Below are positions 25,317 through 42,802 of a stretch of DNA of 64,000 bases, piece by piece; the stretch's first letter is position 1; every line of letters begins with the position of its first letter. The translations under genes were made by a program, and so were the position numbers. Under the pieces are notes generated by a model that worked only from the letters and a program-made list of their open reading frames with translations, made no database searches and was not told the DNA's origin. The stretch lies in IMG/VR virus record IMGVR_UViG_3300025280_000022, one strand, 5' to 3'. This DNA comes from a virus.

Positions 25317-25355
25317 GCCCCCCCGCCCGCCGCCAGCCCGCTTATAGAGCCAAAT
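25317..25355. repeat. GC-rich element, half copy (single box 25335-25355)
   Basis: CCCCGCCCGCCGCC-AGCCCGCTTATAGAGCC. Confidence 0.75.
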
Positions 25356-25383
25356 GGGGAGATAACTTTATTCATTTTTGGAC

Positions 25384-25411
25384 TTGACTTAATCAAAAAA
25401 AATGTCATAAT
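25384..25411 (+). promoter_or_regulatory. early promoter, leaderless
   Basis: TTGACT-16-CATAAT with TG extension; ATG 25419. Confidence 0.8.
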
Positions 25412-25418
25412 TAAAGGC

Positions 25419-25865
25419 ATGAAAGATAGGGAAATAGATTGGGATCGCAGAGTATACGTTTATCGCAACCTGCATAAAAACTGCTGGTCTGTGCGACAGA
25501 ACGGCCTGATTGTTCAACATACTAAAGAAGTTTCGTTGAAAGACGTTCGTTTCTTAGTGGGTCAAACTGGACGCAAGAAAGTTTTAAAAGAAAAGCGTAA
25601 GAATGTTCATGCTGGCATTTCAGGTTACCTTATGGGGTTTCGTGAGTCACACAAAGATATTAATGTTCCGAGATCACCAGCGGCAGCATTTTTCCCTAAC
25701 TCGGCACAGGTTGTTTACAATCCCTACAAGTACAAGACTTTTGTACGCATCCCAGAATACTCGTGGTCGCTCGTAAAAACGCAAGATCTAACGCCTGTAA
25801 AAAAGGCATCTTTCGCCTCTTTAAGCATTGACAATGGCGTGTTTGCCTATATGATAGAAGAATGA
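25419..25865 (+). CDS. conserved phage hypothetical protein
   Basis: VYVYRNLHK.CWSV...GR.KVLKEKRKNVHAG...YNPYKY pattern. Confidence 0.8.
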   Translation: MKDREIDWDRRVYVYRNLHKNCWSVRQNGLIVQHTKEVSLKDVRFLVGQTGRKKVLKEKRKNVHAGISGYLMGFRESHKDINVPRSPAAAFFPNSAQVVYNPYKYKTFVRIPEYSWSLVKTQDLTPVKKASFASLSIDNGVFAYMIEE

Positions 25866-26185
25866 AAATGTTAAAAGATTATACCGTTGTAAATGATGCG
25901 TCCCTGATCACGGACACCTTCTTGCAGGGTTACGTTATCAGCAGTTACCAGAACTTGGTAGACCTCTTTGGCGAACCCACCGTACAGTTCGATCCTTATA
26001 AAACCAGAGCCAACTGGGTGGTGCAGTTTGAAGATGGCGTGGTGGCAACCGTTTATGATTACAAGGTACACGGCAAGCCTATTGAGGAGGTTACCGAATG
26101 GAACGTGGGAGGAAAGTCCCATGTCGGTCACGATAGAATGATGGAACTCGTATATGGAGAAGTTTTCGATGACTCTGGTTTGTAA
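25862..26185 (+). CDS. conserved phage hypothetical protein
   Basis: SY..LV.LFGEP...K...W...F.DG.VATVYDYK...W.VGG. Confidence 0.75.
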   Translation: MKMLKDYTVVNDASLITDTFLQGYVISSYQNLVDLFGEPTVQFDPYKTRANWVVQFEDGVVATVYDYKVHGKPIEEVTEWNVGGKSHVGHDRMMELVYGEVFDDSGL

Positions 26186-26414
26186 TCCCCAGCTACAAGA
26201 ACACCTCGACCATGAGTTTGGGGCGCAGTACGATGATGTGCGTGAACGCTACGCAAACGAGATTCAAGACATGAGAGATTACGAAGAATCCGAGCGAGAG
26301 TATTACGAGTATATGCAAAAAGTATATGAGGCAGGTTTCGGTGATGACGACCAAGCATACGAAAATTCATGGAAAAGAACTGAAGCATACTTTAACGAAC
26401 GTAACCTTAACTAA
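26169..26414 (+). CDS. acidic hypothetical protein
   Basis: D/E-rich ORF, ATG 26169. Confidence 0.6.
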   Translation: MTLVCNPQLQEHLDHEFGAQYDDVRERYANEIQDMRDYEESEREYYEYMQKVYEAGFGDDDQAYENSWKRTEAYFNERNLN

Positions 26415-26421
26415 CCAAAAA

Positions 26422-26688
26422 ATGGACTACGATTACCTACAACTGCACCAAGACGACTACGGCTTCAACGTCAAGGCTTACAAAGCCGATGGTTATCCTT
26501 CATATTCCGTATGCGCTGGGATGACAAAGATTTCCTTTTTGGATTCTTTCAATTCCGAAGCCGAAGCGATTGAAGCGTACCCTGACCTCGTTGGTAGTGA
26601 TGGCGAAGTAAGTTATGGTTCTGCTTTCCTAGATGCCGACCTCAAGGACGTTTCCCACATTCCAGACACACCTGACCTATATATATAA
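26422..26688 (+). CDS. acidic hypothetical protein
   Basis: ATG 26422 after A-rich leader. Confidence 0.6.
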   Translation: MDYDYLQLHQDDYGFNVKAYKADGYPSYSVCAGMTKISFLDSFNSEAEAIEAYPDLVGSDGEVSYGSAFLDADLKDVSHIPDTPDLYI

Positions 26689-26876
26689 TGAAATTAGAAA
26701 AAACACACATGAAAACCTTGGCAGACTTGCGAGAGCAAATCCAAGAGGACATACTAACCTATATTGAATCAATACGAGTTACACAGTCGTGGAAAACTAT
26801 GGGCTTTCGGTACAAATCAGAGCTTTGTCAACTCGTAGGAGAAAGATTCAACCAATACACTAATGAATTACGATAG
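26688..26876 (+). CDS. hypothetical protein
   Basis: TAATG overlap. Confidence 0.6.
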   Translation: MKLEKTHMKTLADLREQIQEDILTYIESIRVTQSWKTMGFRYKSELCQLVGERFNQYTNELR

Positions 26877-27087
26877 TTGCGAACATGAATACATGGAACT
26901 GAAGTCTCAATTCCATCAAGAAAGAATGCTTGAGCCGACAGAACCTCACGACAAAGGTTATCTTTTAGTAGACGACAATCAAGTGCAAGAGGCTATTGGT
27001 TTTCGTTCTATTGATGGGGCAGTCGAATACGCCTCGTCCCTTGAACATGACCACTATACAATCTATCAACTCAAAAAAGTATTATGA
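26863..27087 (+). CDS. hypothetical protein
   Basis: ORF track. Confidence 0.55.
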   Translation: MNYDSCEHEYMELKSQFHQERMLEPTEPHDKGYLLVDDNQVQEAIGFRSIDGAVEYASSLEHDHYTIYQLKKVL

Positions 27088-27374
27088 TGACATCTCAATC
27101 AACTTTGGCCGTAAAGGGTTATATTATCGAGGAGGGCTTCCATCGTGAAAAGTGGCACCCTAAACAGCAGGCTTGCTGTGGCAACGGCAGGGCAACCCAT
27201 TATTATGACATTACCTACAAGGTGGATTATCGCATAACAAAATTCATCCGATTCGATAGGCTAGAACATAGGGAACAGTTTATTGAGTTACTGCACGAAG
27301 CAGGTTACAGATACGATGAGCTGTATGACAATCAACCCATCCCACCTCCACCAGGAGGAACAGTACGACCATGA
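27084..27374 (+). CDS. hypothetical protein
   Basis: ATGA overlap. Confidence 0.55.
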   Translation: MMTSQSTLAVKGYIIEEGFHREKWHPKQQACCGNGRATHYYDITYKVDYRITKFIRFDRLEHREQFIELLHEAGYRYDELYDNQPIPPPPGGTVRP

Positions 27375-27523
27375 AATACAGTGAACTATACTTTGAGAAA
27401 CACAATGACGATGAGATGAGTGCTTTTGCCCAACTCCTAGCTTACTTTCAGGCTTACTCAGTGAAGTTTGTCGTTGAGGATAGCCATACTTGTATTAAGC
27501 TCATGGTTCAGTGCACTGGGTGA
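27371..27523 (+). CDS. small hypothetical protein
   Basis: 50 aa by eye; stop abuts GC element. Confidence 0.5.
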   Translation: MKYSELYFEKHNDDEMSAFAQLLAYFQAYSVKFVVEDSHTCIKLMVQCTG

Positions 27524-27594
27524 AGTGAGTGATAGAGCGGGCTGGCGGCTGGCCGCCCCGCCCGCGCCGTGCCAATCCGCATGGATAGTGACTT
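27523..27594. repeat. bipartite GC-rich element
   Basis: Degenerate boxes at 27523 and 27574 (51 bp apart). Confidence 0.75.
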
Positions 27595-27691
27595 TATTAG
27601 ACCGCCTTATTGAACCCATAGCTGAAAAAGTTTTTTTGTTTTTTGTGCGATTGCCCTTGACTTAATCGTAAAAGATGTCATACTTAAAGGT

Positions 27692-27805
27692 ATGATAATT
27701 AAGGTAAGAAAGACAGGAATCTTTAGTAAAGCTCGCCCCTTCAAGCGTGTGAACAAAGTTCTCCCTCGCAAGCAAAAGCACAAGAAAAGGGTTGACATTT
27801 CCTAA
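27692..27805 (+). CDS. 37-aa basic peptide with RKxKHK motif
   Basis: Leaderless after TTGACT(27657)-16-CATACT; MIIKVRK...LPRKQKHKKRVDIS. Confidence 0.6.
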   Translation: MIIKVRKTGIFSKARPFKRVNKVLPRKQKHKKRVDIS

Positions 27806-27847
27806 AAAATCTATTTAATTAAAGGTAACAATTAAGCTAAAAAAACT

Positions 27848-28603
27848 ATGAAACAACTCAACCTATCAATCTGCGGTTCAGACCGCACCAAAGCAACCAT
27901 TGAAGATGTCCTCGCAGTCGAGACTCCTCAAAAGACCGACACGTGGACTCCTATCGGTCATGGTTTCCTCATCGACCAGACTCGCAAGCATCTTGACGAG
28001 AATGGTTTCGATGTTGTGGACGAAAATCACAACCTCGCTCGTTTTGGGCAACGCTATTTTGGTCTTATGCAAGTCCAAGATCGCAACGCTCCCGAAAATG
28101 CAGACAGGGCAACTGTCGTTGGTCTGCGGAATGGTCACGATAAGTGCTTTCCTGCTGGCATTATGGCTGGCGATGCTCCTTTCGTTTGCTCCAATCTCAT
28201 TTTCAGCAATGAGATCGTTATTGCTCGGAGGCATACCAAGAACATCGACAACATCAATGTAGCTGGCAACATCTTTATGAAGATTGCTAATGCCATTGGC
28301 AGGTTGCGTGAATCTTGGGTTGGTCAGGAAAAGCGTATTGACTCCTACAAGGAGTACGATCTTGGTTCCAACAAGGAGGCTAATGACCTCATCATCCGTG
28401 CGTATCAATCTGGTGCTTGCTCCAAGACCCAAATTGCTGACATTGTTGAGCAATGGAACAAACCCAACCACAACGAGTTTGCTGACCGCAACTTGTACTC
28501 TCTGTACAATTCGTTCAGCGAGGTCTGGAAGGGTAACTTGGGATTGCTTCCTGCTCGCTCGACTTCGCTCCACTCATTATTCGATGCAACTGCGGAGGCT
28601 TAA
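27848..28603 (+). CDS. DUF932-family protein
   Basis: T.TW.PI.H, GLRNGHDK, FVCSNL, RRHT, LYNSFSE. Confidence 0.75.
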   Translation: MKQLNLSICGSDRTKATIEDVLAVETPQKTDTWTPIGHGFLIDQTRKHLDENGFDVVDENHNLARFGQRYFGLMQVQDRNAPENADRATVVGLRNGHDKCFPAGIMAGDAPFVCSNLIFSNEIVIARRHTKNIDNINVAGNIFMKIANAIGRLRESWVGQEKRIDSYKEYDLGSNKEANDLIIRAYQSGACSKTQIADIVEQWNKPNHNEFADRNLYSLYNSFSEVWKGNLGLLPARSTSLHSLFDATAEA

Positions 28604-28651
28604 TCCTCCCAGTTGCCCATCCTTCAAGATTAACCTACTATATTAAAAGAT

Positions 28652-28891
28652 ATGAAAAACACTGCTCGTACTATTGACCAAGTTGTCAAGTCCTCACAAG
28701 GACGTTTCGTTTCGGTTCTCGTTTCACGTGGACTAAATCGCATCGCTCATTCGGCAAAGGTGAGTAGCGTAACTTCTGGTTACGTTTACTTTACCGATAC
28801 GAATAACGGTCGCCCCAACAGGCGTGTCGTTCGTGACCGTGTTCTGCGTGTCGCTTGTGGCAATGCGGTTTTCGCTCGTTCTTCGCTTTAA
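28652..28891 (+). CDS. hypothetical basic protein
   Basis: ORF track. Confidence 0.6.
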   Translation: MKNTARTIDQVVKSSQGRFVSVLVSRGLNRIAHSAKVSSVTSGYVYFTDTNNGRPNRRVVRDRVLRVACGNAVFARSSL

Positions 28892-28916
28892 TTAGCGGAG
28901 AATGCCCTCGGCTCCC

Positions 28917-28988
28917 AGCCCGCTCTATGAGCGGCCTGGCGGGCCGCGGCCCCGCCCGCCCAGCGGCAGACCGCATAAACACTGGGCT
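28917..28988. repeat. bipartite GC-rich element
   Basis: Boxes at 28917 and 28968. Confidence 0.9.
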
Positions 28989-29040
28989 CAGGGCGAAAGT
29001 TTAGGGTTGACTTAAACGCAAAAACCTGCATAATTAAGGT

Positions 29041-29622
29041 ATGAAAATTAATCCTCAAGAAATCACCGATTACAAACGCACGACTGACGAACTGGAATTT
29101 TTCCTATTGTTCTGCGTGGTCGTTGCAGGTAAGACCTCCGACATTCAAGCTCGCAAGCTGGAGCAATGGTATGATGCTCGTTTTTATCAATGGCATTCTC
29201 CGTTCGATTATATCTCTAGTCTATTGAGTTCGGGTTTGCGTGGGTCTCTCGAAAACGTCAAGATGGGGCAGTATGGTCGTCTTGTTAACTCTTTTCGGGA
29301 TATAGTCTATCTTGGGCTTGACCTCAAGAAATGCTCGTTGCATGACCTATGCAAGATTCGTGGCATAAAGTTTAAGACGGCAAACTTTTTCCTGACTCAC
29401 TCAAGAAAGGATTACAATGTCCCTGTGTTGGACACTCATGTTCTTAAATTCTTGAAAGCTCAAGGAGTTAAAGATGTTCCCAAGGCTACGCCACAAGACG
29501 AAACGGATTACAATTTCTTTGCAGACCAGTTTGCCGAGATTGCCAAGGCGATGAAGATGTCCGTGGCAGACCTTGACCTTCAGGTTTGGAAACAATACTC
29601 AAAATCAACCATAAAGGCATAA
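29041..29622 (+). CDS. HhH-GPD superfamily DNA glycosylase (Ogg-like)
   Basis: LCKIRGIKFKTANFFL (HhH), VLDTHVLKFL, DL.VW; leaderless promoter at 29007. Confidence 0.8.
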   Translation: MKINPQEITDYKRTTDELEFFLLFCVVVAGKTSDIQARKLEQWYDARFYQWHSPFDYISSLLSSGLRGSLENVKMGQYGRLVNSFRDIVYLGLDLKKCSLHDLCKIRGIKFKTANFFLTHSRKDYNVPVLDTHVLKFLKAQGVKDVPKATPQDETDYNFFADQFAEIAKAMKMSVADLDLQVWKQYSKSTIKA

Positions 29623-29623
29623 C

Positions 29624-29833
29624 ATGATTGCAGAACCAGTAATGGAACCTTCCCTCTACGAACTCAAGTTGGCGTCCAAGACCTATGACCCAACCTATGA
29701 TGTGGAGTGGAACGAAGATGTGGACGCATGGACAACTCGTTTCGTTGACCACTACAACAAGGATGACACCATCGACTATATGTTTAATTCTAAAGAAAAA
29801 GCCGAGGAATTGCTTCTTCAGTTAATTTCATAA
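29624..29833 (+). CDS. hypothetical protein
   Basis: ORF track. Confidence 0.55.
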   Translation: MIAEPVMEPSLYELKLASKTYDPTYDVEWNEDVDAWTTRFVDHYNKDDTIDYMFNSKEKAEELLLQLIS

Positions 29834-29882: not shown

Positions 29883-31070
29883 ATGATAAAACTTGAAACA
29901 CTATACAAGGTAGATTCCGTGGGGAAGCTACGAGAATGGACAATGGTAATTGACAGCAATTCTTACCATGCCGTAAAAGGACTTGTGGACGGCAAGAAAA
30001 CCACAGACAAACCAAGAGTTGCCATTGGCAAAAACATTGGTCGCACAAATGCAACAACCAATGAAGAACAAGCGGGACTTGAGGCACAATCTCGTTGGGA
30101 AAAGAAATTGAAAGCAGGTTACGCCCAGACTCTCAAAGGAGCAGAGTCGAAAAAATTCTACGAACCGATGCTCGCCCAAAAGTTTGAGGACAGAGAAGCA
30201 ACATTGGAATATCCAGTTTATTCGCAACCAAAACTTGATGGGATTAGGTGCATCGTTCAGAAGAAGAATGGTAAGATTGTCTCACACACAAGAACTGGTC
30301 GCGAGATTGAAACAATTCCCCATATCCTTGAGGAACTGAAGTTTTTCTTTGACCTGTATCCAAACGCTGTTCTTGATGGCGAACTATACAATCACGCCCT
30401 AAAGAGCGATTTCAACAAGATTGTTTCCCTTGTGAGAAAGCAAGTGCCTGTTCGTTCTGAAAAGCAAACAGATAAGGCTTTTGCCAAAAAGGTGCAAGCC
30501 TTTAAGGAACGCATGGTAGAAGCAAAGGCAATGATTCAGTACTGGGTTTATGATTGTCCACGCATAGGGGAACTAGATGAATCAAACACATTTGCCGAAA
30601 GGTTTGAAAAGGTGTCGAACCAATTTGAATTGGGCAATCCTTTTCCAGACGGAATTGTGCTTGTGCCTACCGAAAACATTTCGGACAAGGAAACTCTTGA
30701 CGAATTTTATGCAGAGTGGCTCAAGAAAGGGTTTGAAGGTCAGATGGTTCGCAAGGATGCCTCATATGAAAACAAGCGGAGTGCTACCCTTTTGAAGCGT
30801 AAAGAGTTTACGGATGCGGAGTATAAGGTGCTTGATATTGAAGAAGGCGATGGCAATCGTACTGGAACTGTAAAGCATTTGGTATGCTATTGCCCCACAA
30901 CGGACAGAACCTTCAATTCCAACGTCAAGGGCAACTTTGAATATCTCAAGGAGATTCTGGACAATCGAGAATATTATATCGGTCAACTCGCAACCATAAA
31001 GTTTTTTGAGTTGACTCCTGATGGGATTCCTCGCTTTCCGTTTGCCATAGCATTTAGGGATTATGAATAA
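29883..31070 (+). CDS. ATP-dependent DNA ligase (copy 2)
   Basis: PKLDGIRC, LDGELY, EGQMVR, LLKRK, PRFP; collinear paralog of 12847; leaderless promoter 29849. Confidence 0.93.
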   Translation: MIKLETLYKVDSVGKLREWTMVIDSNSYHAVKGLVDGKKTTDKPRVAIGKNIGRTNATTNEEQAGLEAQSRWEKKLKAGYAQTLKGAESKKFYEPMLAQKFEDREATLEYPVYSQPKLDGIRCIVQKKNGKIVSHTRTGREIETIPHILEELKFFFDLYPNAVLDGELYNHALKSDFNKIVSLVRKQVPVRSEKQTDKAFAKKVQAFKERMVEAKAMIQYWVYDCPRIGELDESNTFAERFEKVSNQFELGNPFPDGIVLVPTENISDKETLDEFYAEWLKKGFEGQMVRKDASYENKRSATLLKRKEFTDAEYKVLDIEEGDGNRTGTVKHLVCYCPTTDRTFNSNVKGNFEYLKEILDNREYYIGQLATIKFFELTPDGIPRFPFAIAFRDYE

Positions 31071-31496: not shown

Positions 31497-31583
31497 GCCC
31501 GAGTGGTGGAATGGTAGACACTACGGACTTAAAATCCGTTGCCCCAACAAGGCGTGAGGGTTCGACTCCCTCCTTGGGCACCA
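31497..31583 (+). tRNA. tRNA-Leu(TAA)
   Basis: GCCCGAG/CTTGGGC acceptor, ACGGA-CTTAAAA-TCCGT, long variable arm, GGTTCGACTCC, CCA. Confidence 0.95.
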
Positions 31584-31586: not shown

Positions 31587-31630
31587 AATTGACTCTATAA
31601 GCGGTCTGGCGGCTGGGCGCCCCGCCCCCG
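31587..31630. repeat. GC-rich element, half copy directly after tRNA-Leu
   Basis: ACTCTATAAGCGGTCT-GGCGGCTGGGCGCCCCGCCCCCG. Confidence 0.7.
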
Positions 31631-31700
31631 AAAAAAGTCAAGCGCAAAAAAGATTATTTTTTCCGTTGACATTGCCCCTAATTCTGTCATTATTGTAAGC

Positions 31701-32554: not shown

Positions 32555-32752
32555 ATGACTATATTAGACACACCAGAAGCAATTGATGGTTTTCGTGTTC
32601 GGGTTTTGCTCCGTGCGCTCAAGTTAGAGTGTCTTGGAATGAAAAGGGGAGGACAGTCCGTCTATAGCATCGTCAAGAATGAGTTTGGGTTCAAGGGCAA
32701 TAAGCAAAAGGTCTACGCCCAACTGGAGGAATGGATCAACGACAATCCGTGA
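32555..32752 (+). CDS. hypothetical protein
   Basis: ALKLE..GMKR...S.Y..VK..FG.KG pattern. Confidence 0.65.
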   Translation: MTILDTPEAIDGFRVRVLLRALKLECLGMKRGGQSVYSIVKNEFGFKGNKQKVYAQLEEWINDNP

Positions 32753-33111
32753 GGAGCTTAATAACATTACTTTTTTTGAGCGTCTCACTTTTTGGGGAGT
32801 TAAGAAATAGGCACGTTGCCGAGGAATGGAACAGTCGCGCAATAAATATTGAGCGGAGCGTATTTTCCCAACAAAATGCGTGGCACTACTTAAGTTGGTT
32901 TGGGGTGTATTATCAAACCGAGGAGTGGTGGATTTATCATTGCGAAAAGGGTTGGCTTTATCCTGAAGGCGATAATAATCTGGGGGCTTGGTTTTACTGG
33001 GAAAAGACAAATACTTGGATTTGGATGCGTGCTGATGTATATCCTCTGGCCTGGAATAGTGGCACACAGGCATGGTTTAATTTTTGTGGTGACCCGCTAG
33101 CCCAGTCATAG
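32749..33111 (+). CDS. secreted Trp-rich domain protein
   Basis: GTG start overlapping previous stop; signal peptide then W..SWFG.Y....WWIYH..KGWLY....G.WFYW....W.W....YP. Confidence 0.7.
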   Translation: MRSLITLLFLSVSLFGELRNRHVAEEWNSRAINIERSVFSQQNAWHYLSWFGVYYQTEEWWIYHCEKGWLYPEGDNNLGAWFYWEKTNTWIWMRADVYPLAWNSGTQAWFNFCGDPLAQS

Positions 33112-33170
33112 AGCGGGCTGGCGGCTAGGCGCCCAGGCCGCCCCGCGGCAGGCCGCATAAACACTGGGCT
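33099..33170. repeat. bipartite GC-rich element
   Basis: AGCCCAGTCATAGAGCGGGCT (33099) and AGGCCGCATAAACACTGGGCT (33150). Confidence 0.92.
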
Positions 33171-33874: not shown

Positions 33875-34123
33875 ATGAATAAACTAGAAAACGCTCTCGC
33901 TTGTCTCGGCATTGATCCCAGCACTTTTGAAGAATGGAAAGCTGATGTCGGGACTGACAAACTTGTTGCGGAAAATGGATTGCTCAAGACTACGGACGAA
34001 GATGTGCGTGATGAACTTGGGCAACTCGATACATCAGTCGAGGATGATCCGATAGACGAAGATGACGAAAACCAAGTAGACATGGATGTGCTGTCTCCAC
34101 ACATGAGAGAGGTATACCAGTAA
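33875..34123 (+). CDS. acidic protein, paralog of 42253
   Basis: DPIDEDDE.Q.DMD motif. Confidence 0.7.
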   Translation: MNKLENALACLGIDPSTFEEWKADVGTDKLVAENGLLKTTDEDVRDELGQLDTSVEDDPIDEDDENQVDMDVLSPHMREVYQ

Positions 34124-34384: not shown

Positions 34385-34419
34385 GCCTCGTCGGGGTTGG
34401 TGGTTCTCCTCGGCGAGGC
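34385..34419 (+). other. hairpin with invariant TTGGTGGTTCT loop (copy 1)
   Basis: 12-bp stem GCCTCGTCGGGG/CCTCGGCGAGGC. Confidence 0.8.
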
Positions 34420-34423
34420 CCTT

Positions 34424-34495
34424 ACCCCGCATGAACACTGGGCTGGAGAGGGGCGGCCTCCCCCGCCCGCCGCCAGCCCGCATGGATACTGGGCT
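34424..34495. repeat. bipartite GC-rich element
   Basis: Boxes at 34424 and 34475; followed by TTATGTATAG copies. Confidence 0.9.
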
Positions 34496-34662
34496 GGTGG
34501 GTGATGCGCGCCCTTATGTATAGAGCCTTATTAACATCTTATGTATAGTGTGCCCAGCACCTGGGCTTTTCCCCCGAAAAAAAGTTAAAAAAACTCTTGA
34601 CTTCACAAAAATTTCTGTCATACTATAACTATAATTAAGATTAACCATCAGCCCAAAAAAAC

Positions 34663-34902: not shown

Positions 34903-35175
34903 ATGCTCGACTTGAGTAACGTAGAAAAAATCACCGACCCAGAGGTCATCGCGCAGGACGCGTTCGACGCGGGTTGGGAGGGACGTCTCTCCTGTAACAT
35001 GCCCGCGCAGTATGCGGACGTGGGCAACAACTGGCGCATCTGGGCAGACGAATGGCAGTCTGGTCATCGTGACGCGCAGGACGATGTCGCCTACTATCGG
35101 GCGGACGCGCAGGGGCCAGACGCGACTGGCCAGAGTGACTGGGCGATGGATCAGTTCGTGGACGAGTCGCTTTAG
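34903..35175 (+). CDS. acidic hypothetical protein
   Basis: AFDAGWEG...P..Y......W..G; stop overlaps box edge. Confidence 0.65.
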   Translation: MLDLSNVEKITDPEVIAQDAFDAGWEGRLSCNMPAQYADVGNNWRIWADEWQSGHRDAQDDVAYYRADAQGPDATGQSDWAMDQFVDESL

Positions 35176-35245
35176 TTGGCTCTATTACTGGGCTGGCGGG
35201 CGGCGGGCCCTCCCGCCCCGCTCCAGGCCGCTCTATGACTGGGCT
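35174..35245. repeat. bipartite GC-rich element (inverted orientation)
   Basis: Boxes at 35174 and 35225. Confidence 0.92.
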
Positions 35246-35332
35246 GGCGGGCGAAAGTTTTTTAAAAAAACGCTTGACATCCTACCCCTATAGTATATTA
35301 TTGAAGGTAGTTAATTGAAAGACTTTTATTGT

Positions 35333-35478
35333 GGGGTCGTAGCTCAGATAGGTGAGAGCACCAGTCTACGCCAAGGGGGTTGATCTCCCCGAAACTCGCC
35401 AAGCATGAGGTACCGCTTGCAAGGTTGGGGGAAGCGATAATAGACTGGAGGTCGAGGGTTCGAGTCCCTCCGATCCCT
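35333..35478 (+). ncRNA. tRNA-like RNA with ~70-nt insertion in the anticodon loop
   Basis: Acceptor GGGGTCG/CGATCCC, D arm GCTC/GAGC, anticodon stem CCAGT/ACTGG, T arm GAGGG-TTCGAGT-CCCTC; own promoter TTGACA(35274). Confidence 0.85.
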
Positions 35479-35619
35479 GCTTTTTCTGTAGATCGAAAGA
35501 TTGAACAACGAGGCGTCAGCACACGCCTACAACCCTTCGGGGAGAGAGAAAAAGGTTCACAATTTAGTTGACATCTCGCACTTTTTACTGTAAAATTATC
35601 TTAAATCAAAATTAAAACC

Positions 35620-35901
35620 ATGGAATACCATAGCATTAAAGTTATCGACCGTTGGAATCAAGATGAAGACGGCAACCATCTGGAAGTAAGAGTGGGAATG
35701 TCTGCACCATCTGCGCAGGACGCAGTTGACTATATCGCAGACGCTTTCAATGTTCGCCCCGAAGACAAGCGTTACCTAGTTTTGTCCCAAGAGGATGAAA
35801 AGCGTATGTACGCTGAATTTAGCGACTCAATCGAAAGCGCAACCTTTGGAGGGTATGAGTTAGCTGATGGGTTGGCTTTTGCTTACGACATAGACGACTA
35901 A
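35620..35901 (+). CDS. acidic hypothetical protein
   Basis: After TTGACA...TAAAAT promoter. Confidence 0.65.
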   Translation: MEYHSIKVIDRWNQDEDGNHLEVRVGMSAPSAQDAVDYIADAFNVRPEDKRYLVLSQEDEKRMYAEFSDSIESATFGGYELADGLAFAYDIDD

Positions 35902-35908
35902 TTGCTCT

Positions 35909-35980
35909 GATTGGCTCTATCATTGGGCTGGCGGGCGGCGCTCTCCTCCGCCCCGCTCCAGCCCGCTCTATGACTGGGCT
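35909..35980. repeat. bipartite GC-rich element (inverted orientation)
   Basis: Boxes at 35909 and 35960. Confidence 0.9.
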
Positions 35981-36070
35981 GGAGGTCGATAAAAAACGAA
36001 AAAACTCTTGACTTTGTTTAATTTTCTGTCATACTTTATATAAAGATTAACATTATTAAGATAAAAAACC

Positions 36071-36337
36071 ATGAGTAACCACGACCAAGCATACATTGAA
36101 AAGTTTCAATCCGAAGACACCACCTACAATGGGTGGAAGAATCATGCCACCTGGAATGTCGCCCTTTGGATTGGTAGCGACCAAGGGCTGTATGAATTTG
36201 CCAAGGAGTGTGGCGACTACGACACCTTCAAAGATTCTTTGCGTGATGTCGGCCAACTGGAAACGCCCGACCGAGTTGCCTATAACGATTCGGCTCTCGA
36301 CCTCGAAAGCCTTAACGAATATATCAGCGAATTATAA
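36071..36337 (+). CDS. conserved phage hypothetical protein
   Basis: YNGWKN.ATWNVALWI..D.GLY...TPD.V pattern. Confidence 0.75.
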   Translation: MSNHDQAYIEKFQSEDTTYNGWKNHATWNVALWIGSDQGLYEFAKECGDYDTFKDSLRDVGQLETPDRVAYNDSALDLESLNEYISEL

Positions 36338-36825: not shown

Positions 36826-36864
36826 AACCCGTCGAGGTTGGTGGTTCTCCTCGGCGGGTTTTTT
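36826..36864 (+). terminator. terminator hairpin with TTGGTGGTTCT loop (copy 2)
   Basis: AACCCGTCGAGG/CCTCGGCGGGTT plus T-tract. Confidence 0.85.
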
Positions 36865-36925: not shown

Positions 36926-36957
36926 GGTGGTTCAACTGCATCGGCTCAAGCTAATGC

Positions 36958-37099
36958 TTATGCATAGTGATCTATGTATAGTCTATGCATAACGTTTTAT
37001 GTATAGCGTTTTGAGTCATCGCCCGCTAGCCCAGTGATAGAGCGGGCTGCAGCGGGGCGGGGGGGCCCGCCGCCCGCCAGCCCAGTGTTCATGCGGGTT
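36958..37099. repeat. TTATG(T/C)ATAG array plus bipartite GC element
   Basis: Four 10-mers 36958-37006; boxes at 37028 and 37079. Confidence 0.9.
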
Positions 37100-38088: not shown

Positions 38089-38336
38089 TTATTTTCGGCC
38101 TATCAATTATCGCCCTTTTAGTTTTTGCATATCTAACCCGATAAAAAAATGATTGAAGTAATTTTGTTTGTTGGTCTTTCCCTTGCTTACGCTAACCTTA
38201 CAACCTAAAAAACACATGAAGCACATTGCCGATTTATTTGCCAAACCGCTTTTGCTGTTGTCCCTGACTGCGTTCCTTTACGTCCTGCATATTGTAGTGA
38301 TGGATTGGATTCGTCTCATCGGTTAAACAGTCGCCG

Positions 38337-38420
38337 CTATACATAAGCCGCTATACATAAGGCCTTATACATAAGGGCGGCGGGGGGCCGCGGCCCGCCA
38401 GCCCAGTGTTCATGCGGGTT
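38337..38420. repeat. inverted CTATACATAA array plus half GC element
   Basis: Three 10-mers, GC spacer, box at 38400. Confidence 0.88.
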
Positions 38421-38571
38421 GCGGGGCGGTCATTAGAATTTCTCTGCTCGGTATAAGTTTTGCTCATAAGATAAAAAAGTGAAAAAACTTTCACAAAAGG
38501 GTTGACTTTATCAAAAATTCTGTCATACTATTATTATATTAAGATTAAAAACCACAAAAAGAAAAACCACC

Positions 38572-38787
38572 ATGATTAAAAAAAATGATATTGTTCGCTC
38601 TCCTCAAGGTCTCGTTGGCGTTGTCCTTGACCTAGTCAAAGACCCTGACGGCATCCAGTTTGCGATTTTCCGTTGCGTTGGTTCGCAACGAAAGGTTGCT
38701 TGCCCAGTTGCCAGCTTAAGCCCGCACAAGTGGCTCAATGTTGTCAGCATCCATCAGGACAACAAGAACCTTCTCGCCAAAAGTTAA
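38572..38787 (+). CDS. small SH3/KOW-like protein
   Basis: IK.ND.V...G.V pattern shared with 38791. Confidence 0.6.
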   Translation: MIKKNDIVRSPQGLVGVVLDLVKDPDGIQFAIFRCVGSQRKVACPVASLSPHKWLNVVSIHQDNKNLLAKS

Positions 38788-38790
38788 GCC

Positions 38791-38976
38791 ATGATTAAAA
38801 CTAACGATAAAGTCCTCACTAAAAAAAATTCACTTTGCAAGGTGACTTCCATTCGTGGTCGCTTCGCATTGCTCAAGGGCATTGGCTCGGATCAGTCCCC
38901 GCCTGTACGAGTCCTTGCTTGCATCAGCGACCTGCGGACTCTTAAGGGTTTTCACGGCACTCATATTATTATCTAA
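38791..38976 (+). CDS. small SH3/KOW-like protein
   Basis: Paralog of 38572. Confidence 0.6.
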   Translation: MIKTNDKVLTKKNSLCKVTSIRGRFALLKGIGSDQSPPVRVLACISDLRTLKGFHGTHIII

Positions 38977-38987
38977 ACAAAAAAATC

Positions 38988-39185
38988 ATGACACGTAAAC
39001 ACTTCGAGCTTATTGCTCAAACACTCAACAAGGCTCACAAGCACGACCACAACAAAAACGTGGTGCAAGGTATTGCCTTTGACCTATCAACCAAGTTTAA
39101 GGATATCAATCCCAACTTTTCACAAACCAAATTCATGCAGGCAGTCATGGCCGATTCAGGACTGTTCTTCACCAACGGAAAATGA
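38988..39185 (+). CDS. conserved phage hypothetical protein
   Basis: MTRKHFELIA...NPNF...KF..A pattern. Confidence 0.75.
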   Translation: MTRKHFELIAQTLNKAHKHDHNKNVVQGIAFDLSTKFKDINPNFSQTKFMQAVMADSGLFFTNGK

Positions 39186-39394
39186 CTGATCTAAAACAAT
39201 TACCTTATTGCCTAAACTTTCTCGCTAGGAACAGCGGGGACGTTTATTATCGAGCGAGTCACCAAAATTTTAAAACTATCGGTGACGCTTTGCGTTTTAT
39301 CTGCGACTTGAAAAAGTCGGACAAGCAAACCCGTGACCGCTATCTTTACAAGCGTACAGGTCGCAGGGGATTTGACTTTATTAACCAATATTAA
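39182..39394 (+). CDS. hypothetical protein
   Basis: ATGA overlap. Confidence 0.55.
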   Translation: MTDLKQLPYCLNFLARNSGDVYYRASHQNFKTIGDALRFICDLKKSDKQTRDRYLYKRTGRRGFDFINQY

Positions 39395-39413
39395 AAACTT
39401 TTGACAGCATGGC

Positions 39414-39452
39414 GTGCGGCGGGGTTGGTGGTTCTCCCCGTCGCACTTTTTC
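39414..39452 (+). terminator. terminator hairpin with TTGGTGGTTCT loop (copy 3)
   Basis: GTGCGGCGGGG/CCCCGTCGCAC plus T6. Confidence 0.85.
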
Positions 39453-39453
39453 G

Positions 39454-39895
39454 TTATACATAAGCCACTATACATAAGGCCTTATACATAAGGGCGGCGG
39501 GGGGCCGCGGCCCGCCAGCCCAGTGTTTATGCGGGTTGCGGGGCGGTCGTTAGGTAAGTTGCAACTTACTAAAACGCATTGTTTGAATTAAATCCGAATT
39601 AAATCGGATTTAATTTTTTCCTCCGAATTTCCTGCAAAAAAAGGAGCTTTAACGGATTTTTTTTGCATTTATTTTCGTGTTTGGCTCTATTAGTGGCCTC
39701 GTGGCGTGTTTTTTTTATCGTATTTTCCCAAAATTAGTTTATAATGGTAACATACAAAATTGAGAAAGACCAAACTTTAAGCGTAACGGCAAAACCCTAC
39801 CATCGGCCACTAATTAGAGAGTCGCCACAAAAGGGAAATTGAAAAAACAAAACTACGCTAACTTTAAAAAAACCACTAAATCCAAAAAAATCATG
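39454..39895 (+). repeat. long intergenic repeat unit A
   Basis: 10-mer array, box 39517, palindrome GTAAGTTGCAACTTAC 39554, CCGAATTAAAT repeats, TATAAT promoter, conserved leader. Confidence 0.9.
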
Positions 39896-40123
39896 TTCAA
39901 AGCTACTCATTTAGTCCTCACTCCTCACGCAGGAAATTCCGCCTTTGGGGTGGGATTCTCCCCTTCTCCCAAGAAGGCAATCGCCTTGGCGAAAGTCAAC
40001 GCCGACATCAACCTTGATAGGTTCGATGCCGAGCATGGCATTTGCTCCTCCATTGGCGGGGAAGTCACCAACCTTTTCAACGCCTCCAATGGTGTCCACA
40101 TCCACCAAAACCTCGACCTTTAG
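39893..40123 (+). CDS. hypothetical protein
   Basis: ATG 39893. Confidence 0.6.
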   Translation: MFKATHLVLTPHAGNSAFGVGFSPSPKKAIALAKVNADINLDRFDAEHGICSSIGGEVTNLFNASNGVHIHQNLDL

Positions 40124-40127
40124 TCCT

Positions 40128-40307
40128 ATGACCAGAGAAGAAAACAAAACTTACCTGCAAACCAGAATTGCCAACCTGAAGGCTGAAGTCGCTGGGCTTG
40201 TTGCAAGAGACGCAAGAGACGGAGAGATCCGAGCTTGCAAGTCGGAGCTTGCCCGCCATGAACAGGCTCTTGTGTGGCTCCACAACAGGATTGCCACAAG
40301 CCTCTAA
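40128..40307 (+). CDS. coiled-coil hypothetical protein
   Basis: ATG 40128. Confidence 0.6.
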   Translation: MTREENKTYLQTRIANLKAEVAGLVARDARDGEIRACKSELARHEQALVWLHNRIATSL

Positions 40308-40333
40308 TTTAACCACAAACAAAAACCACTACA

Positions 40334-40525
40334 ATGCAATTCATTATAGCAACCACCAAGTCGGGCGTTTATCGCCTGCAAGTCTTCAATCGTGGGTTCC
40401 AGATTGGAACACACAACTCCGTCAGTCGGAAGTATGTTAAGCGTGTCATTCGCAAGTACACCGCTCGCATGGTGTCCTCATCCCATGCGGCACATGGCAA
40501 GCCTGTAAATGTCATTTGGGCATAG
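40334..40525 (+). CDS. hypothetical protein
   Basis: Stop TAG runs directly into CCTTATGTATAA array. Confidence 0.6.
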   Translation: MQFIIATTKSGVYRLQVFNRGFQIGTHNSVSRKYVKRVIRKYTARMVSSSHAAHGKPVNVIWA

Positions 40526-41034
40526 CCTTATGTATAACGCTTATGCATAGCTTATGCATAGCGTCTTATGTATAGCGTTTAAGCTCATCGGCCGCTAGCC
40601 CAGTCATAGAGCGGGCTGTAGCGTGGCGGCGGACGCCGCGGCCCGCCAGCCCAGTGTTTATGCGGGTTGCGGGGCGGTCGTTAGGTAAGTTGCAACTTAC
40701 TAAAAACGCATTGCTCGAATTAAATCCGAATTAAATCCGATTTAATTTTTCCCCCCGAATTTTCCGCAATTTAAGGAGCTTTAAACGATTTTTTTTGCAT
40801 TTATTTTCGCATTTGGCTCTATTAGTGGCCTCGTGGCCCGATTTTGTTCTCGTATTTTTCGAAAAATGGTTTATAATGGTAACATAGAAAATTAGAAAAG
40901 ACCTCACCAAAAAGACTTTACGACACGCAACGGCAAAACCCTAAACTCGGCCACTAATTTGAGAGTCGCCACAAAAGGGACATTGAAAAAACAACACTGC
41001 GTTTCACTTTAAAAAATCCTGTAAATCAAAAAAA
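40526..41034 (+). repeat. long intergenic repeat unit B
   Basis: 10-mer array, boxes 40597/40648, palindrome 40685, promoter, conserved leader. Confidence 0.9.
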
Positions 41035-41157
41035 ATGTTCATCCGAAATCCAAACGTCATTTAACGCCCTCCTGATGGTGAGATGGGCGCGCCAAGATTA
41101 TGACAAAGAAAATTCCCATTTAACGCTCGTATGACGGGGAGATGAGCGCCCCAAGAT
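41035..41157 (+). other. two tandem micro-ORF + H-type pseudoknot units
   Basis: 59-nt period; covarying stems (see findings). Confidence 0.65.
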
Positions 41158-41182
41158 AAAAAATTTAAAACCACAAAAACCC

Positions 41183-41338
41183 ATGCAAACAATTTCTGAT
41201 TTAAAAAACCTTATAAGCTCCGCCAAATGTGGAACCGACTTGACTATTGCCCGAACAATGGTTCAATGGTCGGACGTTCCGCCTCCCATTAAGGCGCTTT
41301 TATTCCAGCAGATTGTAGACAAAAGAAAAACCCTTTAA
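41183..41338 (+). CDS. small protein, paralog of 43306
   Basis: LKNLI..A....D..IART.V..SD.P..IK...F.Q. Confidence 0.7.
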   Translation: MQTISDLKNLISSAKCGTDLTIARTMVQWSDVPPPIKALLFQQIVDKRKTL

Positions 41339-41345
41339 GACCATT

Positions 41346-41492
41346 ATGACAAAAAACGAAAAAATCGCTCGCCTTGAAACTCACCTTGCTTGGTGGACTG
41401 CCAAGCTTAACCGCTCACGCAAGAACTCCTTGATTGCCATGCGTGCGTTGCATGTCAACGCAATCCGCAAGGAACTTGAAGCCCTCAAGTAG
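41346..41492 (+). CDS. 48-aa basic protein, paralog of 42514
   Basis: LAWWTAKLN.SRK.SL...RALH.NAIRKELEALK. Confidence 0.75.
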   Translation: MTKNEKIARLETHLAWWTAKLNRSRKNSLIAMRALHVNAIRKELEALK

Positions 41493-41498
41493 ACTTTT

Positions 41499-41651
41499 AT
41501 GTACGTCCTACAATCAACAACTAAAGCCAAAGATTGGCAAGCTGAAACCCTGCCGATGCCTTTGGCTGTCGCGGACAAACTGGTGCGCCAGCGTATCGCT
41601 CAGGCTTCAGGCTGTCGCCGTTATCGCCTTGTCAAGGTGCGCGTAGCGTAG
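41499..41651 (+). CDS. small hypothetical protein
   Basis: 50 aa; TAG runs into CCTTATGTATAA. Confidence 0.55.
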   Translation: MYVLQSTTKAKDWQAETLPMPLAVADKLVRQRIAQASGCRRYRLVKVRVA

Positions 41652-42030
41652 CCTTATGTATAACGCTTATGCATAGCTTATGCATAGCGTCTTATGCATA
41701 GCGTTTAAGCTCATCGGCCGCTAGCCCAGTCATAGAGCGGGCTGCAGCGGGGCGCGGGAGCCCGCCGCCCGCCAGCCCAGTGTTCATGCGGGTTGCGGGG
41801 CGGTCGTTAGGTAAGTTGCAACTTACATGGGCGATTCATTTATTCCGAATTAAATCCGATTTAATTGCCTATTTAATTTTTCCCCCGAATTTTCCGCAAT
41901 TTAGGGAGCTTTAAGCGATTTTTTTTACGATTATTTTCACGTTTGGCTCTATGACTGGGCTGGCGGGTGAAGATTGTTATTGTATTTTTCACAAATTCGT
42001 TTATAATGGTACCATACAAAATTAAGAAAG
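41652..42030 (+). repeat. long intergenic repeat unit C
   Basis: 10-mer array, boxes 41723/41774, palindrome 41811, extra box ~41941, promoter. Confidence 0.9.
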
Positions 42031-42052
42031 TTAACCACCAAAGATAAAAACC

Positions 42053-42226
42053 ATGTTTAAAGTTATAGAAGTTCGTTTTGATATCCTAACAGGAAACGAG
42101 TCCGAGCATATCCTGCTCAAGACCAACCACAAGCTCCTAGCCGATGAGGCTTGCAAGGATGCAAATGCCTCATTTGAGGGTGACGTTCCTGGGTTCGAGT
42201 CTTTCGCTGTTGTCGTCAAAGTTTAA
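42053..42226 (+). CDS. small hypothetical protein
   Basis: 57 aa read by eye, AACCATG context. Confidence 0.6.
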   Translation: MFKVIEVRFDILTGNESEHILLKTNHKLLADEACKDANASFEGDVPGFESFAVVVKV

Positions 42227-42252
42227 ACACAAACAAAAAAGAAAAAACCACC

Positions 42253-42501
42253 ATGAGCAAATCCATCTCACAACTCCCTCTCGCCCTTCAATCCCTCTTT
42301 GCCGAGCTACACGCCGAGCAAGCCGTCGAGCAAGTCTTGGATGCCGTAGACGGCACACAAACCAAAGCAACGTCCGAGGACATCATGGACGAATTTGTCC
42401 GCATCGAAACCGAAGTCGATGCCGATCCCATCGACGAAGACGACGAAGAACAGATCGACATGGACTGCGTGTCCGTCGAGATGCTGGAGATGTTCAGCTA
42501 A
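42253..42501 (+). CDS. acidic protein, paralog of 33875
   Basis: DPIDEDDEEQIDMD. Confidence 0.7.
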   Translation: MSKSISQLPLALQSLFAELHAEQAVEQVLDAVDGTQTKATSEDIMDEFVRIETEVDADPIDEDDEEQIDMDCVSVEMLEMFS

Positions 42502-42513
42502 ACTTTAACTATT

Positions 42514-42660
42514 ATGTCAAAACAAAAAGAAATCGAAAAGCTCGAAAGAGATCTCGCTTGGTGGACTGCCAAGCTCAACAAGTCACGCAAGGAATCCTTG
42601 CGTTCCATCCGTGCGTTACACGCTAACGCTATCCGCAAGGAGCTTGAAGCTCTCAAGTAG
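42514..42660 (+). CDS. 48-aa basic protein, paralog of 41346
   Basis: Near-identical C-terminal 35 aa; TAG runs into CCTTATGTATAG. Confidence 0.75.
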   Translation: MSKQKEIEKLERDLAWWTAKLNKSRKESLRSIRALHANAIRKELEALK

Positions 42661-42802
42661 CCTTATGTATAGCGTTATACATAGCTTATGTATAGTGTCT
42701 TATGTATAGCGTTCACAGCCATCGGCCGCTAGCCCAGTCGTAGAGCGGGCTAGAGCCTGACGGCGGGGCCCGCGGCCCGCCAGCCCAGTGTTTATGCGGG
42801 TT
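42661..42802. repeat. TTATGTATAG array plus bipartite GC element
   Basis: 10-mers at 42663, 42675, 42686, 42700; boxes 42731/42782. Confidence 0.92.

Follow-up and report, generated by a model that had tools for sequence, protein, structure and literature searches.

A bipartite element punctuates the small early-gene cassettes of this uncultured marine phage, and we read it, at slightly less than even confidence, as the stem-loop of a PeSL-type terminator/promoter cassette flanked by conserved, putative protein-binding boxes. The anatomy of the element, its conservation, its spacing statistics, the insertions and deletions between relatives, and the wide distribution of the box were all directly observed. 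What is new is the 21-bp box, AGCCCAGT-N6-GCGGGYT, while the hairpin and promoter are of the known PeSL type.

The window, meaning the whole 64-kb stretch of DNA analyzed, was scanned with both box variants at a threshold of ≤3 mismatches, and matches were confined to 25.3-42.8 kb. The two variants gave 8 and 10 matches, as compared to 0.00 and 0.01 expected from shuffled sequence. Their centers define types A and B, their arms are identical, and in total ~27 boxes lie within 18 kb, where the whole module is repeated ~15 times. An earlier sequence-only reading of this DNA had described ten box pairs with starts exactly 51 bp apart, a 30-bp spacer almost entirely of G+C, and copies in both orientations; all three descriptions were confirmed for the window. 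The spacers are all 14 of the window stretches with at least 88% G+C, and these runs are 27-48 bp long and each located between a gene end and a promoter. Equally correct were its coordinates for the stops of three upstream ORFs (27523, 33111, and 35175), which fall at or within a box, its placement of a tRNA-Leu (31497-31583) 3 nt before 31587, and its remark that the spacers at 35174 and 37028 are nearly reverse complements of each other. The copies it quoted all stand, but three minus-strand boxes (39679-39699, 40811-40831, and 41941-41961), each 18 nt upstream of a promoter, had been overlooked. A pair can hold its boxes as direct (37028) or inverted (33099) copies, both box orientations are seen relative to co-directional genes, and single boxes flip in place with the spacing unaltered. 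The window copies are not independent, since 39.4-42.9 kb is a ~1.13-kb tandem tri/quadruplication and the copies at 37028 and 42731 have 274 bp in common.

In each module, the 29-31-bp G-run/C-run hairpin stands between two boxes. Short iterons, preceded in some modules by an intrinsic terminator, come before the first box, and beyond the second box follow an A/T-rich stretch and a strong σ70-type promoter. Because the box directly abuts the hairpin within this larger intergenic module, the 51-bp distance is the sum of 21 bp of box and 30 bp of hairpin. A classical hairpin-plus-T6 terminator precedes the G-run/C-run hairpin in some modules, and several boxes sit 3' of a complete intrinsic terminator and 5' of the next promoter. 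The early promoter family has 12-16 copies, with TTGACT or TTGACA, a 16-17-nt gap, and a CATACT-type -10 preceded by TGT; an example at 34597..34624 (+) contains TTGACT, 16 nt, and CATACT with the preceding TGT and an A-rich upstream region, and others lie at 25384, 27657, 29007, 29849, 31666, 33215, 35274, 36008, 36339, 37689, and 38502. A second, weaker promoter class carries its own box 18 bp upstream of its -35. The length of this 18-nt linker is kept and its sequence is not (10 cases in 5-6 lineages), and these promoter-proximal boxes have lost the right arm while keeping their position.

The 51-bp spacing had been called invariant, which holds in the window but not in relatives, where distances of 50, 52, 65-68, and others occur. 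Among 35 distinct marine copies the spacing is 51 bp in 26, 50 in 4, 52 in 1, and 65-68 in 4, and related viral contigs have spacings of 66-69 and 165-169. Placement of the two sites on one DNA face would be only approximate, since 51 bp amounts to 4.9 turns at 10.5 bp per turn. The commonest punctuation in relatives is a hairpin with 7-bp arms, located 60-120 nt before a promoter of the same type and lacking boxes. A σ54 promoter (TGGCACG-N4-TTGCW) was considered for this hairpin and rejected; relatives match 15 of 16 positions, and the motif is absent from every window copy.

Ten complete elements were located. The first (27523..27594, unstranded) consists of two degenerate boxes with an ATCCAT-type center around the 30-bp G+C spacer, followed by the promoter at 27657. 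At 28917..28988 (-), a near-perfectly palindromic box A, a spacer, and a box B are followed 18 nt beyond by the promoter -35 (29007). The element at 33099..33170 (unstranded) has box A forward and box B reversed, so that the whole is one long palindrome (DNA fold z = -3.6), and the orthologous junction in L010/L006 contains the hairpin alone, without boxes. Box B, a spacer, and a box with an ATCCAT center make up 34424..34495 (-), which an intrinsic terminator (34389-34423) precedes and which iterons (34513-34551) and the promoter at 34597 follow. Two elements bound an extra cassette composed of a tRNA with an insert and an ORF (35620-35901): the left boundary module, 35174..35245 (-), has a box A without its right arm, a spacer, and an intact box A, with a promoter at 35274, and the right one, 35909..35980 (-), has a degenerate box A, a spacer, and a box A, with a promoter at 36008, and is 83% identical to the 35161-35254 copy. 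The remaining four all read box A, spacer, box B on the plus strand. At 37028..37099 both boxes are forward, and a terminator (36830-36864) and iterons (36957-37009) come before; 40597..40668, within the ~1.13-kb tandem unit, has iterons at 40540-40578 upstream; 41723..41794 has them at 41666-41704 and is 94% identical over 181 nt to the 40520-40700 copy; and 42731..42802 has them at 42660-42712.

Half copies are found at four places. A G+C run and a box lacking its right arm lie at 25315..25355 (+), with the promoter at 25384 located 28 nt beyond, and a degenerate box and a G+C run follow the tRNA-Leu by 3 nt at 31587..31631 (-), where relative G001 has the hairpin alone. Reversed iterons, a G+C run, and a box B form both 38335..38420 (+), with three iterons, and 39452..39537 (+), with a terminator (39417-39451) directly before. 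The promoter-proximal arrangement of a box without its right arm, the 18-nt linker, and a promoter is seen at 39679..39745 (-), where the plus-strand promoter 39718-39745 has a weak -35 and a perfect -10, and the same layout recurs at 40811-40877 and 41941-42007. Between box B and this box lies a segment (39540..39680, +) containing a 16-bp palindrome and an A/T-rich stretch with ~11-bp direct repeats, with further copies at 40670-40810 and 41796-41940.

Several results point toward the box as a putative protein-bound site on DNA. A 16-nt box core is identical among phages whose orthologous proteins are 42-91% identical. The 51-bp class, represented by 29 elements, contains 20 distinct spacers (93% G+C), whose mean pairwise identity is 0.74 as compared to 0.96 for box 1. 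RNAalifold found no compensatory pairs in these 29 elements (covariation term -0.1), single-element folds showed no consistent gain over shuffles, and a search of Rfam 15 at E up to 10 matched only tRNAs, both in 24.5-44 kb and in ten outside loci. Fixed spacing, a variable spacer, and the lack of RNA covariation together fit two protein sites on duplex DNA. Counting against this reading, no binding protein was found among the cassette proteins tested; these are ORFans, the most conserved of which is strongly acidic and not DNA-binding in character.

Comparison with relatives of this phage, which encodes rIIA/rIIB and has a terminase only ~25% identical to that of any GenBank phage, revealed that gene content and order vary at these intergenic modules. 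In the one clean case aligned base by base, window positions 35174-36035 read module, tRNA, ORF, module, with the modules as direct copies, and G001 and G002 contain a single module. The ligase, a tRNA, and several ORFs occupy other cassette positions in G001/G002 than in the window, and a block of iteron, box, hairpin, and box is inverted in the window lineage as compared to G001-G005. Some synteny breakpoints have neither box nor hairpin, for example both ends of the window ligase gene. Every cassette has its own promoter, as the sequence-only reading had claimed, and no recombinase was seen among the window ORFs scanned, again in agreement with it. Its reading of the element as a dedicated, integron-like capture site fails on three counts: the cassettes are self-promoted, a recombinase was not seen, and none of the breakpoints falls within a box; its comparison to T4 PeSLs was the right one, as hairpin and promoter match PeSL cassettes.

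Under the favored PeSL-type reading, each small early transcription unit would end at a 29-31-bp G-run/C-run hairpin, and the start of the next would be a strong host-type promoter with an A/T-rich stretch upstream. The hairpins mostly have no T-run, so terminator activity is predicted solely by analogy with PeSLs. The boxes would be bound at the DNA level, in the form of a duplex or of an extruded hairpin tip, and paired sites about five helical turns apart may form a nucleoprotein boundary between cassettes or an operator. With ~15 copies of the whole module in 18 kb, cassettes would probably be added, deleted, duplicated, or inverted by homologous recombination between modules.

The box is not restricted to this array; its arms recur in unrelated phages, prophages, and plasmids of many bacterial phyla. 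This counts against the favored reading, because arms shared by phages of many phyla would need a very widely conserved factor, and a phage-specific early-gene regulator would not be so widely conserved. The arm pattern AGCCCAGT-N6-GCGGGTT occurs at 127 viral loci, some of which are chance matches. Outside copies are usually found amid lineage-specific iterons, next to a primase-helicase, rep, or integrase gene, and a repeated 8-mer is found within 70 nt in 65% of 113 non-redundant contexts, as compared to 10% after shuffling. No paper containing the box string was found in the literature.

These contexts raise a rival that we regard as unlikely, in which the box is an origin-like or primosome-loading site, a replication or recombination-initiation signal for a conserved replication factor acting with lineage-specific iterons, and this phage family would have multiplied such units over its early region. 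Consistent with it, the commonest neighbor among the 127 viral loci is a Toprim_3 + AAA_25 primase-helicase (23 loci), with the box 25-154 nt past the stop or within the 3' end of the gene and between iterons, and near variants lie beside iterons on two plasmids. In pHB2b, a variant with the left arm AAGCCAGT and an ATCCAT center precedes three 21-bp iterons and then repB with its promoter, and in the megaplasmid pBT2101, a variant with C for T at position 8 and an AACCAT center lies between iterons in a 2.2-kb gap. The repeated 8-mers, and the iterons and A/T-rich segment with 11-bp repeats in the window modules, also favor such a role. However, ~27 boxes in 18 kb resemble no origin layout that is known, neither the 64-kb window nor the five partial relatives (17-30% complete) yielded a gene for an initiator, primase-helicase, or Rep protein, the window centers differ from the DnaA-box-like majority type, and many outside copies adjoin integrase and guaA at the ends of prophages, not replication genes. 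A broader proposal, that the box is an undescribed, near-universal DNA signal of mobile replicons, shared by plasmids and by both temperate and lytic phages of many bacterial phyla, read by a highly conserved replication or recombination factor, and working at the dyad of the iterons that serve each lineage's initiator or integrase, is likewise doubtful. If it were true, the ~27 copies would make each early cassette boundary a start site for forks or recombination, and such initiation would itself drive cassette shuffling.

A site-specific recombination site is quite improbable. The box would be a 7-7-7 core with imperfect inverted arms and a 7-bp overlap, types A and B would be heterospecific, and cassettes would be excised, inserted, or inverted by a recombinase whose gene lies elsewhere. 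The size and symmetry are those of a λ-type core, both centers have the same arms, single boxes flip with spacing kept, cassette order varies among relatives, and elsewhere the box adjoins tyrosine integrases and large serine recombinases. Yet no recombinase was seen in the window, neither hybrid boxes nor in-box breakpoints were seen, promoter-proximal boxes keep their position without a right arm, and the plasmid and primase-helicase contexts have no recombinases. Prophages L025, L027, and L033 diverge from the free form L040 ~35 nt beyond the box, in the 3' end of guaA, which places the crossover outside the box.

It is highly improbable that the boxes are selfish REP/BIME- or REPIN-like repeats, largely functionless in themselves, that invaded terminator hairpins and the 3' ends of genes. 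Such repeats would account for imperfect palindromes at gene 3' ends, pairs with fixed linkers in both orientations, the variable presence at orthologous junctions (33099 as compared to L010/L006, and after tRNA-Leu), the three ORFs ending at or inside a box, and the position of outside boxes, often at the apex of a longer hairpin (flank pairing of 244 as compared to 183 ± 10 in shuffles). Against this, neither a RAYT nor an IS200-like gene was seen in the window, and copies are limited to one 18-kb region instead of being scattered. The arms remain identical across phyla, where they are present in single copy, a pattern that points to strong selection, and the constant 18-nt distance to promoters points to function. 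An RNA-level element on early transcripts, whether the tip of a terminator or 3'-end-stabilizing hairpin or a protein-bound RNA hairpin, is also very improbable: boxes do lie directly 3' of stop codons (15-16 nt past guaA in >30 genomes), outside contexts are enriched for a C-rich left flank, a G-rich right flank, and trailing T's, and the box can fold with G-U pairs where the other strand would have A-C mismatches, but the 29 diverse elements lack covariation, both orientations relative to transcription occur here and at guaA, copies lie 3' of complete intrinsic terminators, variants without a right arm are conserved yet unable to fold, and no Rfam family matched at E up to 10.

Among known systems, integron attC sites and Acinetobacter pdif (XerC/D) sites are likewise short symmetric sites that punctuate small gene cassettes, with alternating orientation in pdif. 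Integron arrays consist of promoterless cassettes in a single orientation, with R''/R' core sites and an adjacent IntI. The box array was rejected as one, having self-promoted cassettes, boxes in both orientations, no AAC...GTT core, and no integrase among scanned ORFs; it differs from both systems in lacking IntI, a Xer-type 11-6-11 site, and R''/R' AAC/GTT boxes. The likeness of reversed box B to the inner XerC arm of dif is limited to 7 nt. REP, BIME, and REPIN sequences are also G+C-rich imperfect palindromes just past genes, variably present at orthologous sites and arranged in direct or inverted pairs with fixed-length linkers. REPs are species-specific, number in the hundreds, are scattered genome-wide, and are accompanied by a RAYT transposase. 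The phage copies are instead clustered in 18 kb, with box arms common to many phyla, and membership was rejected since all copies lie in 25.3-42.8 kb of 64 kb and no RAYT gene was seen in the window.

Iteron origins of plasmids, and those of primase-helicase phages and satellites such as P4 (ori/crr) and SaPI/PICI (ori), are similar in that the box elsewhere lies among iterons by rep or primase-helicase genes, and that window modules combine iterons with an A/T-rich repeat segment. Such an origin has iterons and an adjacent initiator gene in one or two copies per replicon, whereas here ~15 modules lie in tandem between small genes and no initiator was found in the window or the partial relatives. 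To our knowledge, a conserved 21-bp box has not been described as part of iteron-type origins, and the box is absent from P4 itself.

The closest likeness is to the PeSLs of T4-type phages, for which termination and recombination have been demonstrated (Arbiol et al. 2010, PMC2839356; Comeau et al. 2014, PMC4122927). A PeSL consists of a σ70 early promoter, an AT-rich upstream region, and a stem-loop, often polyG then polyC (PMC2839356, PMC4122927), and the window modules have the same parts: a near-consensus σ70 early promoter, an A/T-rich upstream stretch, and a G-run/C-run stem-loop directly before it. Copies of both separate ORFan genes within a plastic early region, a dedicated recombinase is known for neither, and relatives differ by cassettes with two flanking copies versus one (a single case here having been aligned base by base). 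The modules described here differ in adding iteron arrays, separate intrinsic terminators, and a second, weaker kind of promoter that carries a box of its own, and in that the stem-loop is flanked by one or two strongly conserved 21-bp boxes at a fixed distance.

The two 21-bp box variants, A and B, each with conserved arms around a free 6-base centre, gave 8 and 10 matches in the window at ≤3 mismatches, with 0.00 and 0.01 expected. The sequence-only reading had described ten box pairs set 51 bp apart, spacers of nearly pure G/C and elements (box, 30-bp spacer, box) in both orientations, and all of this was borne out here: each of the ten pairs has the 51-bp distance, the only 14 stretches of ≥88% G+C in the 64 kb are the spacers, and the elements at 27.5-36.0 kb have the opposite direction to those at 37.0-42.8 kb, although the genes are nearly all on the plus strand. 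Within a pair, the boxes may be direct (37028) or inverted (33099), and three additional boxes (39679, 40811 and 41941) have a decayed right arm. The copies are not independent, as 39.4-42.9 kb is a tandem tri- or quadruplication of a ~1.13-kb unit of module plus small genes, and the copies at 37028 and 42731 have 274 bp in common. The cumulative GC skew is reversed at ~38-44 kb, yet the genes there remain on the plus strand.

The 51-bp spacing had been taken as invariant, which is correct for the window but not beyond it. Among 35 distinct pairs from a larger metagenome sample, the spacing was 51 bp in 26, 50 bp in four, 52 bp in one and 65-68 bp in four, and five related contigs had spacings of 66-69 and 165-169 bp. 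The 51-bp class comprises 20 distinct spacers of 93% G+C, with a mean pairwise identity of 0.74 for the spacer as compared to 0.96 for box 1; sequence thus varies at a mostly fixed spacing, which indicates that spacer length is constrained and spacer sequence is not. No compensatory change was found by RNAalifold in 29 diverse elements, so no conserved RNA fold accounts for the fixed length. Because orthologous junctions in the relatives carry a hairpin without boxes, 51 bp is simply the 21 bp of a box plus a hairpin of conserved length.

The order of the module, an element with its terminator, iterons and promoter, was derived from repeat and promoter scans and an alignment of three units. 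The end of a gene is followed by an optional classical terminator (hairpin plus T6, at 34389, 36830 and 39417), three to five iterons of 11-14 bp each, the first box, the 30-bp G-run/C-run spacer and the second box. Two continuations then occur: an A-rich stretch leading to a strong promoter (TTGACT, 16 nt, CATACT after TGT), or a 16-bp palindrome, followed by an A/T-rich segment containing repeats of 11 bp, a third box and, 18 nt beyond it, a promoter whose -35 is weak and whose -10 is perfect. The palindrome, GTAAGTTGCAACTTAC, is perfect and lies directly 3' of the forward-type elements (39553-39572, 40684-40703 and 41810-41829); related palindromes occupy the equivalent place in two of the related partial viral contigs, G002 and G003.

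The window is part of the genome of a large phage without a close relative in GenBank. Among 50,697 phage records Megablast found no match to 30-44 kb, and the terminase is at most ~25% identical to known terminases. Almost all real genes in the window are on the plus strand, and encoded there are rIIA (17477-19732), PhoH (43913-44641), the large terminase (50004-51893), a portal-like protein and two ATP-dependent DNA ligase paralogues (12847-14028 and 29883-31070, both plus strand). Since related IMG/VR contigs of 23-40 kb are rated 17-30% complete, the genome should be roughly 130-150 kb. All metagenome relatives found are of marine origin. Upstream of rIIA lie two sulfotransferase-like ORFs, a RuvB-like AAA+ protein and an Ogg-type glycosylase-like ORF (3487-4269, 6097-6789, 7375-8307 and 14249-15022). 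An ORF just 3' of the array and PhoH (46506-47237, plus strand), kept in the relatives, has a weak match to Sigma70 region 2 and could be a sigma factor that the phage uses for its later genes.

A scan of IMG/VR with box A returned 12 loci on about ten contigs, whose proteins are 42-91% identical to those of the window. On five of these contigs the boxes, in 9, 5, 3, 8 and 5 copies, all run in the same direction, antisense to the genes. The commonest punctuation in the relatives is a box-free hairpin of 29 bp, its 7-bp arms invariant, with the same type of promoter 60-120 nt further on. At two orthologous junctions, 3' of the 32731-33111 homologue and 3' of tRNA-Leu, the relatives have the hairpin alone where the window has box-spacer-box or box-spacer. 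In about 20 copies in contigs G001 and G002 (for example at 6471, 9629 and 14008 of G001), this hairpin, read in the direction of the genes, agrees with the sigma54 consensus in all but one of its 16 positions, and its 'loop' is conserved too; a sigma54 promoter is a good fit there but was rejected, as the feature is lost from the window copies.

Gene content had been expected to change at the elements, and in part it does. Between the homologues of 34903-35175 and 36071-36337, G001 and G002 have a single hairpin-iteron-promoter module, whereas the window has a module (35174), a tRNA with an insert, an ORF (35620-35901) and a second module (35909), the two modules being 83% identical. The expectation failed at some breakpoints that have neither box nor hairpin, for instance at the two ends of the window's ligase gene. 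In G001 and G002 this gene, the odd tRNA and several small ORFs are found at other cassette positions. The entire iteron-box-hairpin-box block is inverted in the lineage of the window, but not the A/T segment, third box and promoter downstream of it. The second ligase (29883-31070) is 91% identical to a relative's copy; the ligase slot after the odd tRNA is occupied in G001 and empty in G002. This tRNA gene (35333-35478, plus strand), missed by ARAGORN, scores 52 bits in Rfam; it has canonical arms, an insert of 76 nt within its anticodon loop and its own promoter at 35274. The cassette proteins are ORFans, and the best-conserved one is very acidic. Two 82-aa paralogues (33875-34123 and 42253-42501, plus strand), extremely rich in Asp/Glu, look like DNA mimics; no other small proteins of the array are conserved as widely, and all relatives have them.

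Box A was not found in 185,579 bacterial species genomes. Exact single copies of box B were present in ∼28 otherwise unrelated viral contigs and in 91 bacterial contigs, mostly from Firmicutes and also from Prevotella, Flavobacterium, Beta-, Gamma- and Alphaproteobacteria, Actinobacteria and Nitrospirae. A scan with the six central bases free, which includes expected chance matches and of which later analyses used only recurrent centres, gave constant arms and a centre consensus of A-W-Y-S-R-Y. The majority centre elsewhere (ATCCAY) resembles a DnaA-box core, but a DnaA box was rejected because the arms are conserved and the window centres do not fit. No Rfam model matches the box family, and its sequence was not found in the papers searched. 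The box is absent from P4 (ori and crr) and from the E. coli CFT073 chromosome, and GenBank phages hold nothing near-matching the region; BLAST with 31-34-nt queries is too insensitive for the box motif.

Outside the window, exactly the same arms occur in phages, prophages and plasmids that are unrelated, from Firmicutes, Bacteroidota, Proteobacteria, Actinobacteria and others, and the box usually lies among lineage-specific iterons. A Toprim_3 plus AAA_25 primase-helicase adjoins the box in 23 of 127 viral loci, with the box 25-154 nt past its stop or within the 3' end of the gene; tyrosine integrases and Cro/CI-type regulators are other recurrent neighbours. More than 30 bacterial genomes have the box beside guaA, 15-16 nt past the stop and in either orientation. 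On plasmid pHB2b, a near-variant box (AAGCCAGT left arm) precedes three 21-bp iterons, the repB promoter and repB, and on megaplasmid pBT2101 one with C in place of T at position 8 is found between iterons within a gap of 2.2 kb. A 10-nt run of the three pHB2b iterons (locus L276, GU722201, 5221-5310) recurs in box B, in its centre and right arm, and by this resemblance the boxes may be related to iteron halves. Across 113 non-redundant contexts, a repeated 8-mer within 70 nt of the box was found in 65% (10% shuffled), inverted repeats of ≥8 nt spanning the box in 38% (9% in controls) and direct repeats spanning it in 42% (8% in controls). Pairing of the flanks directly beside the box exceeded expectation (244 against 183 ± 10), an excess confined to a minority of contexts and often forming a terminator-shaped hairpin.

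The box is best read as a putative protein-bound DNA site, because the arms are constant across phyla while centre, flanks and orientation vary, because non-foldable versions are conserved at a fixed 18 nt from promoters, because RNA covariation is absent, and because several copies lie in the non-transcribed gap from a full terminator to the next promoter. A DNA word conserved so widely implies a conserved reader. A shared trans-factor was sought and rejected, the one protein common to the window and outside box-bearing loci being a nucleotide-kinase-like ORF. Once identified, the reader could point to origins or attachment regions in mobile elements not yet characterised, and could explain the role of the inter-cassette boundaries in the window.

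Association of the box with iterons and replication genes would also suit an origin-type role, but ∼27 boxes in 18 kb are unlike an origin, and this role is possible yet improbable. The remaining alternatives are less likely still. Site-specific recombination at the box, one of the candidate roles in the sequence-only reading, is doubtful: no breakpoint was seen within a box, and in a comparison of integrated and free forms of one phage the attachment crossover lies in the end of guaA, ∼35 nt off the box, on which ground the box was rejected as an attachment core. An Xer/dif reading was also rejected, as reversed box B appears to match only 7 nt of the inner XerC arm of E. coli dif. An RNA role is unlikely, since Rfam (gathering; E up to 10) gave tRNAs only, single-strand folds of ten copies had z from +0.45 to -3.6 without a common structure, and covariation in the RNAalifold set was nil. 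Box A resembles a tRNA D-arm by eye, but no box gets a score from ARAGORN or from the tRNA model. Putative TIGR-type guide hairpins at 20843 and 23534 have no sequence relationship to the boxes. Selfish, REP-like spread of the box is just as improbable as an RNA role.

The PeSLs (promoter-early stem-loops) of T4-type phages consist of a strong sigma70 early promoter, AT-rich upstream, and a stem-loop, often of polyG and then polyC; they act as transcription terminators, border ORFans in plastic regions, and recombine among themselves to give indels and mini-circles without a dedicated recombinase (PMC2839356; PMC4122927). The PeSL-like character first suggested for the array stands, as the hairpin and promoter pairs of the window match this description, and two modules around an extra cassette, as opposed to one module in G001 and G002, are the comparative signature. 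The array belongs to this kind in a new form, with a module more elaborate than a PeSL. The idea of portable terminator-promoter units with which phages shuffle orphan genes safely thereby reaches beyond T4-type coliphages and vibriophages and takes in an unrelated group of marine phages, abundant and uncultured.
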